Source of the DNA: an uncultured Flavobacteriales bacterium | GTDB taxonomy: Bacteria; Bacteroidota; Bacteroidia; Flavobacteriales_D; Crocinitomicaceae | Reading direction: 5' to 3' | Assembly (NCBI GenBank): GCA_913031405.1 | Contig: CAJWCX010000001.1 | Coordinates: 1-31,242 of the forward strand | Length of the DNA stretch: 31,242 bases | Shown: piece by piece, positions 1-21,301 of the stretch | Layout: every line of letters starts with the position of its first letter | Position numbering within the stretch: position 1 is the first letter of the stretch | Translations under genes and position numbers: made by a program | The notes under the pieces: generated by a model | Databases searched by the model: none | Told to the model about the DNA's origin: nothing | The model's input: only the letters and a program-made list of their open reading frames with translations

Positions 1-2153
1 CTGCTTTCAAAATCAAAGACAACATTTCCCCAACGATTGAAAATGATTAGTCTTAGAACAGATAGGTTCTTTGACTCAAGGAAAAACTCTTCATTGGACT
101 CTTCAGTATCTCCATTGGGCGTAAAAACGTTTGGCGCCGTTACAATTGGATCTGGAGGCACGGGGTAAATACATGAACCGTCATCAATAGTCGCTAACTC
201 ATTATAGTTTTCAGCAACAGGGTCCATACATCCACAAATCTCAATTTGGATTTGGACAGTAGTGGAATCCTTACAAAAATCGCCTTGAGAGACAACCAAC
301 TGAGCAATAAAACTAGAAGAGGAAGGAGAGTCGTACGTATAATAAAAAACACCTAATTCATTACTAGAATCGCCAGTTCCATCACCATAGGTGATGTCAT
401 ACGAATCCCCATTCTCACTTGAGGAATAATCAAAAGTGACGGCTAATGGGCCACATCCAGAACTCGGGCTGGCAACCAGGTTAGCTATTGGAGGGTTCAG
501 TAGATCGACAAAAGCGGAATCAGATGTAACGCAAACAGCGTCCTCAACAGTTACGTAATACCATCCTGAGGCCAAATCAATCCAAACAGAAGCTGCGGGG
601 CCCGTCTGTCCCCCTGAACCTGCCCATGAATAATAAACTGTTTGTTGTGGTGTCGTTGTTTCTCCGCTGACCATTGCGGACACATATCCATCAGGTTGAC
701 AGGTTGCGGGACCAACCAAGATAGTATCGATGCTAAGTGTTTGATTCAACGTAATGGTCACTGTGTCTATGGCGCTAAAATCACAATTGTCTGTAGCTTC
801 GACTATAACGTCAAGAGTTCCGTTTTCTGAAATTCCTTGATATATCGAATCCCCTATATCAACTAGGCCGCCTTCAATGTCGAACCATTCATAGGTATAG
901 GGAGCATAGCCCCCTGACGCGGAGGCACCAATAAGAACGCTGTCACTAGCACACAAAATTAGGGTGTCTGATTCGTCGATGTTGATAATTGGACCATCAC
1001 CAATATAAATCACCCCCGAAGAAACAATCGTATCACCACAGATATTTACCAATTCTACCGTTACTGTTACAGATTCAAATCCTTCATTTAATCCATCTTG
1101 AAAAGGAGTAAGAGTAACTATTACAGTATCCTCTCCAGGTAAAAAAACAATAGAATCAGGTATGTTATTGTAGTCCTCTGCCTCAATAGCCACACCGCCT
1201 ACTTCGTAGCTAATAATAAGTGTATCTGCTGTATCACTCTCTGGTCTTGTAAAAATAAAATTCGCATCTGTGCATCCTTCCACTATTGTTGAGTCGCCTG
1301 AAACCGTTGCTACTGAAACATTTACAGCATCAGAAACAAAACTTCCCGCTTGTAGAAAAACTCCTGAATCATATGACTGATCAAAAACATTCGCAATAGC
1401 CAGTTTAATGTGATATATCTCATTACAACTAACCGATGCCGATGCCGCTAACTGCACCGTTGTTCCATCGTACTGTATTGCATCTCCATATGTGGAATTA
1501 GGTGATTCATTAAAAACATAATACGCCGTATTTGTTTCATCACCAACATTATTTATTGTTACAGGAATATTTCCAGGTATTACAGCTATGTTGGCACCCC
1601 CATTTGGATAACCTGCAAGAGCATGTGGGCCATTAATGCCTGGACCCCAAAGAAATAATCCGAATGCATCATTAAAGCTCGATGGGGAAAATTCCGGATA
1701 CTCGTCAGATCCAAATATATAATTAAAACTGACTGTATCTCCCGATGGGACGAAGTCAAACTCTAAAACCACTCCATTGGTTACGTTGCCATTGGCTACA
1801 GCCGATAAGTGCGGGTCAGAGGCAACATTTGATGTAGCAGGTATATTATCCGTATGGCTTCCAGAATTGTTTGGCCCAATAGCTCCCGTGCCATTTCCTG
1901 TTGTTAGAAGCAACCCTGAACCAAAGGGAAATAAAGAGTTTGTATTTGAAAAATAAGTAACATTTGGAACTGGAGATTCAGCCGTTAAAGAATTCCCATT
2001 TATGGTTACATTAAAAGCATTTACCCCTTGTCCTAATAAGACATCATTAACCAACTGAGTTGGAGTCTGAGTATTGGACACAACTATTGACTGTGCTTCA
2101 AAACTGCTTACAATAGCTAAGACAAATATGCTACTTACAATAAAACCTTTCAA
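1..2153 (-). CDS. T9SS type-B (gliding motility-associated CTD) surface protein: choice-of-anchor L, Calx-beta-like, SprB-like repeats, PKD, GCxDP Cys motif; 3' end runs off the window
   Basis: Manual minus-strand translation from TTG at 2153 (in-frame TAA just upstream); every segment translated was open, and the ORF lacks a stop in the window, so it is absent from the ORF track. Signal-peptide-like start LKGFIVSSIFVLAIVSSFEAQ. Choice-of-anchor L motifs TPTQLVNDVLLG, LEFDFVP, FGSDEYPEF, FNDAFG, HIKLAIA, YDSGVFL. ASGGYAPYTYEW (SprB-like). SGCGPLAVTF..YGDG (PKD). C-terminal PNVFTPNGD...IFNRWG. Confidence 0.9.
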   Translation of the reverse strand, partial: MKGFIVSSIFVLAIVSSFEAQSIVVSNTQTPTQLVNDVLLGQGVNAFNVTINGNSLTAESPVPNVTYFSNTNSLFPFGSGLLLTTGNGTGAIGPNNSGSHTDNIPATSNVASDPHLSAVANGNVTNGVVLEFDFVPSGDTVSFNYIFGSDEYPEFSPSSFNDAFGLFLWGPGINGPHALAGYPNGGANIAVIPGNIPVTINNVGDETNTAYYVFNESPNSTYGDAIQYDGTTVQLAASASVSCNEIYHIKLAIANVFDQSYDSGVFLQAGSFVSDAVNVSVATVSGDSTIVEGCTDANFIFTRPESDTADTLIISYEVGGVAIEAEDYNNIPDSIVFLPGEDTVIVTLTPFQDGLNEGFESVTVTVELVNICGDTIVSSGVIYIGDGPIINIDESDTLILCASDSVLIGASASGGYAPYTYEWFDIEGGLVDIGDSIYQGISENGTLDVIVEATDNCDFSAIDTVTITLNQTLSIDTILVGPATCQPDGYVSAMVSGETTTPQQTVYYSWAGSGGQTGPAASVWIDLASGWYYVTVEDAVCVTSDSAFVDLLNPPIANLVASPSSGCGPLAVTFDYSSSENGDSYDITYGDGTGDSSNELGVFYYTYDSPSSSSFIAQLVVSQGDFCKDSTTVQIQIEICGCMDPVAENYNELATIDDGSCIYPVPPDPIVTAPNVFTPNGDTEESNEEFFLESKNLSVLRLIIFNRWGNVVFDFES

Positions 2154-16628: not shown

Positions 16629-17648
16629 TTATGAGATGGACAATATGAGCTTTAAATGTAAATCTAAAATCTGTCCCATGTTTTTACAATCGGAAAAGCT
16701 TTTTTTATGATACCTCTCCAATTCCTTTCGTAGACGACCTATTTTAACCTTTGTAGATAATTCATCATTACAAAGGCAATGTACTAATTTTTGAAAACGG
16801 TGTTGAGCCGTTTCATATCTCCTTCTAATCAGCACCCTTTCCTCCTGTCGATATTGTTCAACTGTCTCGGGTGTCATAACCTCTGAACAGAAATCCACCA
16901 CCATTATGTTTTCTTTAAAAAACTGTGGTAAGTACATGTTTTTTCGTCCCTCATAACATTGCTGGTCAAAATCAATAGCTCGGACCCTATATTGTTCGTC
17001 TTCAAAATCAGGAGTAATATCCACAACGTAATTGTATGATCTCATATCTCCTAAAAGACGAACAAAGCAACGCTCATTAAACTTTACGAACTCTTTAGCG
17101 ATACGCACTTTATTAAATGACGGTGTTTGGGTATATGAATCCATGAACTTATCTCCGGGAATACCGGGAATATGTTCTTCGATGAGGGTGTCTCCATCTA
17201 CATAGAAGTTAATCCTATTTGGGCTTAAAATATATTCAAGTTCGAGTCCGTAAACCCTTGAGGCATCGGTTTTTTTTACATAGAAATAATCGTAGTTATC
17301 ATTGAACTTGTTGACGATTCTAATTCTAAATGGCTTTGAGTTACCAAAGTGACAATAATCTATTCTATCCACATAAAGGTGCTGCATAAATGACATGTCT
17401 CCATCTGTTTTGAGTAAGGAATAAATGTATGTAAGGCCATCGTTAAATTCCTGAATAGCGTCTACACTGTATATAACTGATTCCCACAAGGTATTATTTC
17501 CATGTTTATCCATTAGAGGAAAGCCATCAGAGTATCTTAAAAGGTCCGCGTAAGATATGGGTAGTTTTTTAACTCTACCTATATCTACTAAGTATCTCTT
17601 TAGCAAGTGACTTACAGGAAAAAACGGTTTCTTTTTCGATATATCCAT
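16629..17648 (-). CDS. Hypothetical protein with atypical-kinase-like motifs
   Basis: Long 339-aa ORF in an operon-like minus-strand run; motifs FYVKK, LLGDMRSYN, AIDFD. CDS is secure; function is inferred. Confidence 0.85.
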   Translation of the reverse strand: MDISKKKPFFPVSHLLKRYLVDIGRVKKLPISYADLLRYSDGFPLMDKHGNNTLWESVIYSVDAIQEFNDGLTYIYSLLKTDGDMSFMQHLYVDRIDYCHFGNSKPFRIRIVNKFNDNYDYFYVKKTDASRVYGLELEYILSPNRINFYVDGDTLIEEHIPGIPGDKFMDSYTQTPSFNKVRIAKEFVKFNERCFVRLLGDMRSYNYVVDITPDFEDEQYRVRAIDFDQQCYEGRKNMYLPQFFKENIMVVDFCSEVMTPETVEQYRQEERVLIRRRYETAQHRFQKLVHCLCNDELSTKVKIGRLRKELERYHKKSFSDCKNMGQILDLHLKLILSIS

Positions 17649-18432: not shown

Positions 18433-18690
18433 GTCCGTGCTTTAAAAAATCCAACATCCCAAAAAAAATATTAATGATGATTTTTCAATTTTTGACTGAT
18501 TAATATTCAAAAAATATCAATACGAATCGGGAAAAGAATAGATTAAAGTTTTACATCATCAAGATAAAACGATGTGGATATCTTTCAATTACATGTTAAT
18601 AATCGCTGAAATGACTATGTATGAATGACTTGCAAAATGACCTGTTAATAACCCAATTGCATTGTTCATTTCTTTAGTTTGAAAAGGGTA

Positions 18691-18698
18691 TATTTTTG
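18691..18698 (+). promoter_or_regulatory. Bacteroidota -7 element (TATTTTTG) upstream of nrdA
   Basis: Exact TAnnTTTG match about 160 nt before ATG 18859; AT-rich context lowers specificity. Confidence 0.35.
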
Positions 18699-18858
18699 AC
18701 AACTTTTGTATTGCCTCGGTAAACGAAGACAGCAATGAAGTTTGACAATAACTTTTGCCCGAAAATCTGAGGAAGCAAGACTCACCTAGAGAACATTATT
18801 ATCAGGAACACCAATCACCTTTCCCTGAATAATTTGTTTGACTAACAAAAAAATTGAG

Positions 18859-21165
18859 ATGTACGTAGTTAAGAGAGATGGAAGAAAAGAACCAGTGAAA
18901 TTTGATAAAATCACTGCAAGAATAGTAAAAATGTGTTATGGCTTAGACCCTCTGGTTTCTCCCGAAACTGTTGCGATGAAGGTTATTGAGGGTATCTATG
19001 ACGGTGTAACCACATCTGGTCTAGATAACCTTGCCGCCGAAGTAGCTGCGGCAAAAACAATTGATCATCCAGATTACGCATTATTGGCCTCACGAATTAT
19101 CATTTCCAATTTGCATAAAGAAACAAAAAAAACGTTTTCCGATGTGATGCAGGATCTATACAACTATATAGACCCTAAAACAGGAGAAAACGCATCTCTT
19201 TTGTCTGAAGATGTTTACAATATCATCATGCAAAATAAGGAGGTTTTTGATTCAAGCATCATGTATGATCGTGACTTCCGATATGATTACTTCGGTTTTA
19301 AAGCTCTTACGCAATCCTATTTGATGAAGTTAGAAGGAAAAATAGCTGAAAGGCCTCAACAAATGTTAATGCGTGTATCCATAGGAATACATAAAAACAA
19401 CGTAGACGAGGCGATAAAGACCTACAACTTAATGTCTGAAGGATGGTTTACTCATGCAACGCCCACATTATTTAACTCTGGAACACCTCGGCCTCAAATG
19501 TCATCTTGCTATGCTTTAACAACGAAAGAAGATAGTGTCGCTGGTATTTATGACACACTTAAGTCTTGTGCTCAAATCTCTCAATCGGCGGGTGGTATTG
19601 GACTTGCAATACACGACATTCGCGCAACGGGTTCATATATTAAAGGCGCTAATCGCTTTTCTGATGGGATCGTGCCTATGCTGAGGGTCTTTAATGACAC
19701 GGCGCGTTATATCGATCAGGGCGCGGGAAAAAGAAAGGGTTCTTTTACTATTTATTTGGAGCCTTGGCATGCGGATGTTTTTGATTTTTTAGATCTAAAA
19801 AAGAATCATGGTAAGGAAGAACTTAGGGCTCGTGACTTATTTTTCGGACTGTGGATTCCTGATTTATTTATGAGGCGGGTAAAAGAAAATGGTGATTGGA
19901 CTCTGATGTGTCCACACGAATGTCCTGGCCTATCAGAAAAACACAGTGGGGAATTTGAAAAGCTTTACATAAATTATGAAAAATCAGGAAAAGGTAGAAA
20001 AACTATAAAAGCTCAAGATCTTTGGTTTAAGATCCTTGAATCTCAAATTGAAACAGGGGCACCATACATGTTGTATAAGGATGCCGCTAATCAAAAGTCG
20101 AACCAGCAAAACCTTGGAGTTATCAAGTCATCGAACTTGTGTGCCGAGATGATTGAATATTCGGCTCCAGACGAGGTCGCCGCGTGTAATTTGGCTTCAT
20201 TAGCTCTTCCAAAATACATTAACGGTGACAAGACCTTTAACCACGAGAAACTCTTTGAGGTCACCTATCAAGTCACATTAAACTTGAACAAAATTATTGA
20301 TGAAAACTATTATCCTATTGAAGAGGCCAAGAGCTCAAGCTTAAAACACCGCCCCATTGGCATTGGGGTGCAGGGGCTTGCTGATGCCTTTATTCTTATG
20401 GGTCTTCCTTTTGATTCGGAGGAAGCAAGGGCATTAAATAAAGAAATTTTTGAAACCATGTACTTTGCCTCCATGACGGCTTCAAAAGACCTTGCAAAAG
20501 AAAATGGGCATTATGACTCTTATCCGGGATCCCCCGTCTCTAAGGGCTTTTTTCAATTCGACATGTGGAGCATAACACCCACGAACCGATGGGAGTGGAA
20601 CCTTTTAAAAGAAGAAGTTCAAAAATATGGGATTCGAAACTCACTGCTTTTGGCCACAATGCCAACAACTTCGACAGCCCAAATTCTGGGAAATAACGAG
20701 TGTTTTGAACCATATACTTCAAACATTTATACCCGCCGGGTGCTTTCTGGTGAATTTGTTGTTGTCAATAAACACCTCCTAAAGGACCTCGTAAAAGAGA
20801 ATCTTTGGGACGCGAAGATGCGACAAAAAATAATGGCCGATAACGGCTCCGTACAAAAAATAGAAGGGATTCCAGAGCGTATTAAAAACCTATATAAAAC
20901 CGCTTGGGAAATCTCACAAAAATCCATCATAGAGATGGCTGCAGAACGTGGAGCTTATATTTGTCAAAGCCAGTCTTTAAATGTCTTTATGGAAAATGCA
21001 ACTTTTGGAAAGCTAACCTCTATGCACTTCTATGGATGGGAAATGGGGTTGAAAACAGGAATGTACAATTTAAGGACAAAGGTGGCAACGGATGAAATTA
21101 AGTTCACAATAGACAAAGATGTTCTATCAATAAACGCAGCCAAGTCAAAAGAGGAGAATGCCTAA
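18859..21165 (+). CDS. nrdA: Class I ribonucleoside-diphosphate reductase alpha subunit with ATP-cone; degenerate and possibly inactive
   Basis: Start placed at ATG 18859 ([11 protein letters not shown]-cone; track uses TTG 18838). Motifs [36 protein letters not shown]. Radical-transfer motif reads GMYNLRT and the C-terminal CxxC is absent. Confidence 0.95.
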
Positions 21166-21301
21166 AAAATAGACAAGGACAATGATTGTAAAATGTATGT
21201 ATAATAATCTTAAATTGTATTAATTTTACCCCTCTGTAAAATGTTTGTGAAAACAACCCTTTATACGTCATTAAAAAGACAGACCCTATTATTTTAATTC
21301 T

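Follow-up and report, generated by a model that had tools for sequence, protein, structure and literature searches.

To our knowledge, non-catalytic homologues of the R1 (alpha) subunit of ribonucleotide reductase (RNR) have been described in betaherpesviruses only, and our literature searches for RNR pseudoenzymes or inactive NrdA homologues in bacteria turned up no relevant case. On the beta side, yeast Rnr4 (beta-prime) is an RNR subunit homologue that lacks the residues for radical chemistry and is nevertheless retained; it pairs with the active Rnr2 for cofactor assembly. Mutants of RNR alpha in the tail cysteines are active only with DTT, the E. coli Y731F and mouse Y738F mutants are inactive, and we know of no class I enzyme that functions without this interface tyrosine. 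The radical is passed from beta Y356 to alpha Y731, Y730 and C439 (PMC9231603, PMC4618407). The betaherpesvirus R1 homologues (HCMV UL45, MCMV M45 and HHV-6B U28) are inactive, full-length and under selection, and have no matching R2 (PMC5469499, PMC11772975). Many of their catalytic residues are lost, and they target the cell-death and NF-kB signalling of the host, in some cases by means of an additional N-terminal RHIM. A further system of relevance is the class Id RNR of Leeuwenhoekiella blandensis, with its ATP-cone NrdBi; all species with ATP-cone NrdBs encode another RNR as well (PMC5794259).

The locus described here lies in a 31,242-nt stretch of DNA (the window) from an uncultured marine Crocinitomicaceae genome, a fragmented MAG of 348 contigs that is 68% complete. 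Its gene nrdA-YN encodes an alpha subunit of the eukaryote-like class Ia type (NrdAe), with the same order of ATP-cone, all-alpha domain and ten-stranded barrel as in human RRM1 and yeast Rnr1; unlike these proteins it has Asn for the interface Tyr and no Cys tail, and its nrdB is deleted. We consider it likely (with a probability of about 0.6) that nrdA-YN is no longer a reductase and is retained as a non-catalytic, nucleotide-binding protein. As in the betaherpesvirus proteins, an element essential for catalysis and the R2 partner are lost and the protein is conserved. Still, the YN alpha is bacterial, carries no added domain and keeps the barrel residues; its losses are confined to the site of radical entry, the tail and the partner, and the host-signalling roles are inapplicable. 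Common descent with the herpesvirus R1 proteins was considered and dropped, as the tree nests the YN alpha inside the NrdA clade of its own bacterial genus. In comparison with Rnr4, the presumably dead subunit here is the alpha, without an active class Ia alpha or beta to pair with.

The protein has ATP-cone, Ribonuc_red_lgN and Ribonuc_red_lgC domains (PF03477, PF00317 and PF02867, all above the cut-offs), the domain search found no extra N-terminal domain, and the match to human RRM1 chains is near full-length (bit score 1178-1180); yeast Rnr1 chains were also matched full-length. The automated ORF call begins at TTG 18838; we preferred ATG 18859, where the relatives begin (MYVVKRDG). The barrel catalytic residues C217, N426, C428, E430 and C443, as well as the first tyrosine of the dyad, Y736, are all in place, at positions that align with their human counterparts. 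Near them, the Thr between C428 and E430 is replaced by Ala across the whole YN clade, i.e. the group of homologues sharing the Asn, and the Val preceding Cys443, invariant elsewhere, varies inside this clade (A/G/V/T). About 8% of the invariant columns are changed, and the preservation of all barrel catalytic residues may thus reflect either chance or retained chemistry.

Table 1. Features of the nrdA-YN locus (positions in the window)
Feature	Position	Strand	Remarks
Leader inherited from the deleted nrdB	18433..18858	+	Similarity to sister comF-nrdB intergenic region
nrdA-YN, class Ia (eukaryote-like, NrdAe) RNR alpha gene, 768 codons; span includes the TAA stop	18859..21165	+	Domains, RRM1 match, synteny
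ATP-cone domain	18859..19122	+	Strictest-kept module; 0/48 family-invariant columns altered in any YN-clade member
Cys217 codon (human C218 equivalent), active-site redox pair	19507..19509	+	Kept; flanks altered (F218Y, L219A)
N426-L-C428-A-E430: catalytic Asn, thiyl-radical Cys and Glu	20134..20148	+	Kept; human alignment
Cys443 codon, second active-site redox Cys	20185..20187	+	Kept
TAC AAT, Y736-N737, broken tyrosine dyad	21064..21069	+	N737 at the interface Tyr (E. coli Y731, human Y738)
TAA stop exactly at the relatives' first C-terminal tail Cys (...A-C-S-L-D...)	21163..21165	+	All four YN clusters end here
Fossil redox tail, in frame past the stop: K-I-D-K-D-N-D-C-K-M-Y-V, then two stops	21166..21207	+	

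In frame with the ATG, the codons ATG TAC AAT TTA AGG ACA at 21061-21078 read M735-Y736-N737-L738-R739-T740, confirming inside an intact gene the broken pair that the sequence-only reading had reported, and comparison with the human RRM1 chains aligns N737 with Y738. Among 161 close homologues the first dyad column is invariantly Tyr, while the second holds Tyr in 155 and Asn in six only, these being the window's own clade. The sequence-only reading had raised the idea of a clade of YN variants; such a clade was found, made of four 90%-identity clusters with mutual protein identity of 90-96% (differences of 4-9.5%) and evolving under purifying selection. One population variant within it reads F-N, the first Tyr being replaced too. 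A metagenome pattern scan with a ten-residue motif matched the window's own population only; a species-genome scan with the same motif, which covered this exact motif only, gave no match. In a MAG as fragmented as this one, one might suspect that a sequencing, assembly or binning error produced the Asn codon, or even the divergent gene as a whole. Nevertheless, the independent Tara contig CEUU01022159.1 contains the same locus with three base differences in nrdA and the AAT kept, and 12 different protein sequences, found across five sources (Tara, JGI, NCBI, ENA and Logan assemblies), carry the Asn and an identical stop position, so the codon is not an assembly slip. With the flanking genes also syntenic with sister genomes, we regard the chance of an artefact as negligible.

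The relatives' C-terminus reads ...ACSLDxPDxCEMCSG, and the YN alpha, ending at the first of these cysteines, is without the C-terminal Cys pair used for re-reduction by thioredoxin or glutaredoxin. Past the stop, the fossil tail is identical in 22 of 30 bases (73%) to the codons of a sister genome for I-D-N-G-D-D-C-E-M-C; being so well preserved, it speaks against a very old truncation.

The genes follow the order lepA-DAO-comF, nrdA-purH-mreB, as in sister genomes, and nrdA-YN is the positional orthologue of the only class Ia nrdA of the genus; its YY orthologues elsewhere in this Crocinitomicaceae genus, which occupy the same genomic position, are 84% identical to it. The earlier suggestion of a repurposed paralogue is thus not borne out. 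Upstream of nrdA, nrdB is present in 38 of 38 YY relatives with upstream sequence and missing both in the window and in the Tara contig, and the same deletion-junction sequence appears in the N-terminal read-through of a protein from another YN cluster (P0003). No remnant of class Ia NrdB was detected by tblastn within the window, and the sole PF00268 match in the 68%-complete genome is an ATP-cone NrdBi on another contig (C240), with no class Ia NrdB. The proposal that the protein titrates beta is therefore inapplicable to the cognate beta, its own nrdB being deleted. The nrdA ATG now occupies the position of the nrdB ATG of relatives and, because the adjacent nrdB was cleanly deleted, nrdA has come to be preceded by the conserved promoter and leader of nrdB, ∼220 nt of which (18502-18722) are ∼70% identical to the sister comF-nrdB intergenic region and include several invariant blocks. 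The three lesions are independent of one another and all affect parts essential for turnover, and the Tyr to Asn change and the same stop are common to all four YN clusters.

The NrdBi on C240, Mn-type and class Id-like, has an N-terminal cone and a ferritin-like NrdB; it is 92% identical to, and syntenic with, the operons of three relatives (G044, G142 and G041). In these the downstream gene encodes NrdAi, a cone-less alpha of ∼600 aa bearing both YY and CxxC; an NrdAi gene also comes next in a fourth relative (G073). A tblastn search for NrdAi across the 68%-complete assembly matched the YN gene alone; its absence is accounted for by the end of contig C240, which falls inside the operon, within nrdB. 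A search of the genome for class III NrdD found none. The likeness to the Leeuwenhoekiella enzyme lies in the ATP-cone NrdBi and in the cone-less NrdAi of the relatives, and in the window's lineage the 'other RNR' would be the crippled class Ia alpha. We infer that this class Id-like RNR (NrdBi and NrdAi), native to some members of the genus, has taken over the supply of dNTPs; it is the probable replacement for class Ia, with the NrdB portion alone seen in this genome. The presence of a second RNR would have made the loss of class Ia possible.

Selection on nrdA-YN is relaxed but clearly present; what it maintains is an open frame, the protein fold and, most strictly, the ATP-cone. The YN lineage evolves ∼4-fold faster: the branch lengths are 0.12 substitutions per site for the YN stem and 0.078 for the window tip, against 0.006-0.03 for the sister lineages, and identity of NrdA drops from 96.7% to 84.6%, whereas that of LepA drops merely from 96.5% to 91.3%. 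Thirteen changes are fixed in the YN alpha at columns with at least 97% conservation. YY control quartets of equal divergence show 0.26 changes at invariant columns on average, as opposed to 22 in the YN clade. The relaxed sites lie around the active site and the tyrosine dyad and in both specificity loops and the phosphate-binding loop; changed invariant columns number 18 of 84 in active-site or allosteric segments, which were delimited in part on general grounds and after the changed columns were known, versus 13 of 323 elsewhere (odds ratio 6.5), with none in the cone. The NG86 comparison with sister genomes yields no absolute omega, synonymous sites being saturated in all genes; a rough estimate for the YN clade puts omega near 0.1.

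These data bear on a reading in which nrdA, made useless by class Id redundancy and the nrdB deletion, is slowly decaying, the remaining constraint reflecting a short time or selection against misfolding. The accelerated rate, the many changes at otherwise invariant active-site positions, the fairly recent loss of the tail to a premature stop and the existence of the F-N variant all fit such a decay. Still, the four diverged YN lineages contain no stop, frameshift or indel apart from the tail stop, where ∼10 nonsense changes are expected neutrally (P < 1/2000). Their substitutions shun conserved columns, as 22 of the 100 columns varying within the clade are invariant in the 155 YY sequences against a neutral expectation of 53% (binomial P of 2e-10), and are conservative in type. 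Given also the unaltered cone, the conserved promoter and leader and a deletion that puts nrdA exactly at the nrdB start, we find a decaying gene unlikely; the 'young pseudogene' of the sequence-only reading is rejected on the absence of stops and indels and the non-random substitutions.

Alternatively, the protein might still be a reductase that takes its radical from NrdBi or from unassembled beta, a tail Tyr reaching Y736 through the vacated space, with re-reduction independent of the tail. Retention of every catalytic residue of the barrel, strong overall conservation and the kept promoter would be natural for a working enzyme; the C-terminus of NrdBi is acidic (...DDLF, with a Tyr 14 residues from the end) and broadly resembles the ...DEDF tail of class Ia, and NrdAi was not seen in the assembly. 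On the other hand, the contig end suffices to explain the latter, the NrdAi partnering this beta in relatives has YY and CxxC of its own, and the NrdBi is unremarkable, with two conservative singleton changes and no sign of co-evolution. Relaxation exactly at active-site, specificity-loop and phosphate-loop positions, the variant without the first Tyr as well, and the need of all known class I enzymes for the interface Tyr also argue against turnover, and we judge it distinctly improbable. Complex prediction for the YN alpha and the C-terminal 45 residues of NrdBi scored 0.00, which is evidence neither way. Even more speculative, and in our estimate very improbable, is a version where the YN alpha works with a cross-class radical delivered by the Mn-type NrdBi along a shortened pathway and without a tail or, in milder form, where it senses dATP/ATP as a pseudo-subunit and, by capturing the NrdBi tail, controls the class Id enzyme from across the class boundary. 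If true, the cross-class radical path would bypass the interface tyrosine and dispense with the C-terminal tail.

Retention as a non-catalytic, nucleotide-binding protein would have come about as follows. In the ancestor of the small YN clade nrdB was cleanly deleted, which brought nrdA under the control region and leader of nrdB; the interface Tyr that accepts the radical from beta changed to Asn, and a stop codon cut off the Cys tail that passes reducing equivalents from thioredoxin or glutaredoxin. The Mn-type class Id-like RNR would then have taken over the supply of dNTPs. Judging from the E. coli and mouse mutant data, the YN alpha has most likely ceased to produce DNA building blocks, and the earlier view that it is unable to function as an ordinary class I RNR and is a candidate pseudoenzyme is borne out and strengthened, the tail and the cognate nrdB having been lost too. 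The weakest step concerns the retained role, which may require the binding of adenine nucleotides and the fold or oligomerisation of alpha, but not nucleotide reduction; ATP/dATP sensing or buffering and a moonlighting interaction are examples.

Such a role would point to an unrecognised non-enzymatic function of bacterial RNR alpha. Intact sister orthologues, a clean junction, a fossil tail and a second RNR make the transition readable stepwise in a free-living marine bacterium. It also amounts to a natural experiment showing what in alpha persists for non-catalytic reasons, with the ATP-cone and the scaffold kept and the active site and specificity loops relaxed. For annotation, genes of this kind are labelled 'ribonucleoside-diphosphate reductase alpha chain' and would be miscounted as functional RNRs when the metabolism of marine Bacteroidota is reconstructed.

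Two further ideas on the locus were dropped: regulation of the leader of the NrdR type, as the genome yielded no third ATP-cone protein and no NrdR-box-like palindrome was seen, and a link to the extra 339-aa upstream gene, for which there was no evidence. Scanning the leader against Rfam yielded no credible match. RNAalifold applied to six leaders produced a weak structure (-8.4 kcal/mol), in which one short stem shows a compensatory change.

The product of nrdA-YN, the class Ia (eukaryote-like) RNR alpha gene of the window, has all the domains expected of such a subunit (ATP-cone, all-alpha and barrel, each far over its Pfam cut-off), and human RRM1 and yeast Rnr1 align with it end to end, placing human Y738 opposite N737. 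In the established numbering E. coli Y730/Y731 are human Y737/Y738; thus N737 stands at E. coli Y731, and the residue lost is the subunit-interface tyrosine that takes the radical from beta. It is from Y356 of beta that the radical reaches this residue (PMC9231603, PMC4618407). Across 161 aligned close homologues the first Tyr of the dyad is invariant, while the second column holds Tyr in 155 sequences, with Asn confined to the window's own clade. The broken tyrosine pair claimed in the sequence-only reading is therefore found both in the codons ATG TAC AAT TTA AGG ACA, in frame within the ORF, and in the alignment.

The Asn codon is not peculiar to one assembly. When metagenome contigs were scanned by pattern, Tara contig CEUU01022159.1 emerged, with the same 12-kb gene order and an nrdA that differs from the window's by three bases and keeps AAT. 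A search of 5.8 billion proteins yielded four 90%-identity clusters (P0002–P0005), 90–92% identical to the window's protein and 92–96% among themselves, all with G-M-Y-N-L-R-T and the same terminal residue; their members, drawn from Tara, JGI, NCBI, ENA and Logan assemblies, amount to 12 distinct sequences. That YN variants might form a clade in relatives proved correct: in a maximum-likelihood tree the four clusters are a single clade (SH-aLRT 100) nested in a sister group with 782-aa proteins. The nearest proteins outside this clade, 84% identical and annotated as Crocinitomicaceae or Flavobacteriales, have Y-Y and the full C-terminal tail. The independent Tara contig and the 12 proteins from five sources rule out a sequencing or assembly error, or a singleton, as the origin of Asn, and that the YN gene is an artefact has next to no probability left. 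Within the genus, only the window's own genome out of 164 species genomes has the variant, and a scan of ~185,000 species genomes for the exact YN motif (and for that motif only) found it in none of the others. In P0125, a member sequence of the window's 90% cluster, the first Tyr is changed as well, to Phe, giving a G-M-F-N-L-R-T population variant. Other population variants of this cluster are N372T, V665L, K157R, T222M and I487L (768-residue numbering).

The redox tail is lost too. The NrdA of every relative ends in ...A-C-S-L-D-x-P-D-x-C-E-M-C-S-G, and the TAA of the window occupies the position of the first tail Cys codon. A fossil of the tail follows the stop in frame and matches a sister genome's codons for I-D-N-G-D-D-C-E-M-C at 22 of 30 bases, which indicates that it is real and that the tail was cut off after the lineage had parted from the sister group.

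The third loss is the partner gene. A 327-aa class Ia nrdB lies directly upstream of nrdA in all 38 relatives with an intact dyad (YY) and upstream sequence; we found no nrdB upstream of nrdA in the window or in the Tara contig. In the related species genomes G148 and G044 the order is lepA-DAO-comF-like / nrdB-nrdA-purH-mreB-mreC, and the window has the same order minus nrdB; nrdA-YN is thus a positional orthologue, and not the repurposed paralogue suggested from the sequence alone. The window retains about 220 nt from between comF and nrdB, invariant blocks included (~70% identity, E 1e-24), and the ATG of nrdA takes the place of the nrdB ATG in relatives; the deletion is clean. Since the called N-terminus of P0003 translates through the same junction sequence, the deletion is indicated to be older than the split of these lineages.

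Features of the window and of contig C240
Feature	Position	Strand	Remarks
nrdA-YN ORF	ATG 18859 to TAA 21163-21165		768 codons; start set by comparison with all relatives (MYVVKRDG...), which favour it over TTG 18838 of the automatic ORF call
Dyad codons	21061-21078		M-Y-N-L-R-T
Fossil tail	in frame 3' of the nrdA-YN stop		K-I-D-K-D-N-D-C-K-M-Y-V, then two stops
nrdA-purH spacer	21166-21301		136 nt; fossil tail, then AT-rich sequence
comF-nrdB intergenic region	18502-18740
339-aa ORF	16629-17648	-	between DAO-type oxidoreductase and comF-like gene; no Pfam match
class Id-type nrdBi	C240 (L002/L052) 1-1275	-	contig ends 16 codons short of stop
Relaxed place 1	beside Cys217
Relaxed places 2-3	aligned to human residues about 265-270 and 286-298		presumably specificity loops 1 and 2
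Relaxed place 4	around N-L-C-x-E finger and Cys443
Relaxed place 5	P-T-A-S-T phosphate loop
Relaxed place 6	directly after tyrosine dyad

The window belongs to a MAG of 1.76 Mb in 348 contigs, 68% complete, whose RNR inventory consists of one PF02867 match (nrdA-YN itself) and one NrdB, on contig C240; no NrdD was found in it. A second RNR is present in part: the NrdB of C240 bears an ATP-cone at its N-terminus, and the 348 contigs contain no other PF02867 alpha. The NrdBi in the Mn-dependent class Id RNR of Leeuwenhoekiella blandensis is built in this way (PMC5794259, PMC6754362). The C240 protein, in itself unremarkable, has 92% identity and an upstream neighbour in common with the operons of G044, G142 and G041, in which a 596-aa cone-less NrdAi comes next, bearing a Y-Y and a C-x-x-C tail of its own. 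The nrdAi gene is missing from the MAG because C240 ends inside nrdBi, at the point where nrdAi overlaps nrdBi in relatives, which suggests an assembly break from strain variation or from an element inserted in nrdAi. The class Id operon occurs in nine of 163 other species of the genus, sister-group members among them, and in G073 and G045 both RNR operons stand in tandem at the RNR locus of the window. G148 (94% complete) has class Ia only, so the genus is not generally reliant on class II or III RNR.

The tandem locus of G073 (L066, G073:C4:14000-27000) reads ATP-cone-nrdBi, nrdAi, class Ia nrdB and class Ia nrdA beside the comF-like gene, where the window carries only the crippled nrdA. G143 has its class Id operon divided over small contigs (G143:C21, G143:C49; L049, L050, L063), with an NrdB fragment 94% identical to the one in the window's MAG, as against only 84% for NrdA; the operon may be mobile between lineages, or harder to assemble and bin.

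The YN clade evolves faster than its sisters: its stem measures 0.12 and the window tip 0.078 substitutions/site, against 0.006–0.03 for sister tips. Between two YY sisters NrdA and LepA are equally conserved (96.7 and 96.5%); between the window and a YY sister NrdA falls to 84.6%, LepA only to 91.3% and MreB to 94.7%. At columns invariant in 28 relatives the window has 34 changes (six of them tail columns lost by truncation), and other sequences have 0–9. Changes at family-invariant columns concentrate in six places, with 18 of 84 such columns changed there and 13 of 323 elsewhere (OR 6.5, P 2e-6, indicative only, the segments having been set partly on general knowledge and after the hits were known); in the ATP-cone none of 48 is changed. 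Several relaxed positions still vary inside the clade (A/A/A/S, D/E/D/S, A/G/V/T), which, on the alignment, looks more like relaxation than a new optimum.

The young pseudogene proposed earlier does not agree with the following data. Of 100 columns variable within the clade, 22 are invariant in all 155 YY sequences, compared with a neutral 53% (binomial P 2e-10); equally divergent YY quartets show on average 0.26 changes at such columns (maximum 4). For ~169 amino-acid changes in the clade, simulation on the window's codons predicts ~10 nonsense changes, and none was observed (P < 1/2000); the clade's nrdA has no indels either. Synonymous sites are saturated against every sister genome, and YY pairs calibrate omega at about 0.01; from this calibration, the ~4-fold acceleration and the preservation of the fossil tail we estimate, rather than measure, that omega within the clade is roughly 0.1.

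In the simplest history, an ancestor would have had both class Ia and class Id RNR, class Ia would have become dispensable, and nrdB would have been deleted and alpha would have lost its radical entry point and redox tail. The retention of alpha afterwards is unexpected: the old operon promoter stands in front of it, the frame is intact, the ATP-cone is unchanged and most of the barrel is conserved. We consider its product to be probably a non-catalytic, nucleotide-binding alpha (probability about 0.6). A specific role in ATP/dATP sensing or buffering, or in an older moonlighting interaction, is possible and is the weakest step, drawn from what is conserved. A slowly decaying relic seems unlikely in a gene free of indels and, the tail stop apart, of nonsense changes. 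Still less likely is an enzyme that remains active by using NrdBi, the one beta found in the MAG: the NrdAi of relatives retains its own dyad and tail, no co-evolution is visible in NrdBi, the relaxed part is the surroundings of the active site, and the F-N variant exists.

The putative non-catalytic alpha descends from the eukaryote-like class Ia alpha and resembles it in its working, but departs from functional members in three defining features: dyad, tail and partner beta. The closest analogue described is the R1 of betaherpesviruses, which is inactive (PMC5469499, PMC11772975), and the likeness is one of convergence, without kinship in the tree; the literature searched yielded no description of a bacterial counterpart.

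Across the genus the comF-nrdB intergenic region (upstream of nrdB in L044–L048) is conserved far above the comF-like gene (38% aa) and the DAO gene (47% aa) that flank it. Its invariant blocks include TGTGGATATCTTT, ATCGCT, GATTTTT(G/A)ACAA and TTTCTTTA(G/A)TTTG, the last resembling a Bacteroidetes -7 box; a short stem, CCTCAG...CTGAGG, has a compensatory version in G010. The region has no Rfam match and probably serves the RNR operon as its promoter together with an operator or leader. The 339-aa ORF is missing from the same position in the sister genomes G148, G044 and G073, which makes it a lineage-specific insertion beside the remodelled RNR locus.
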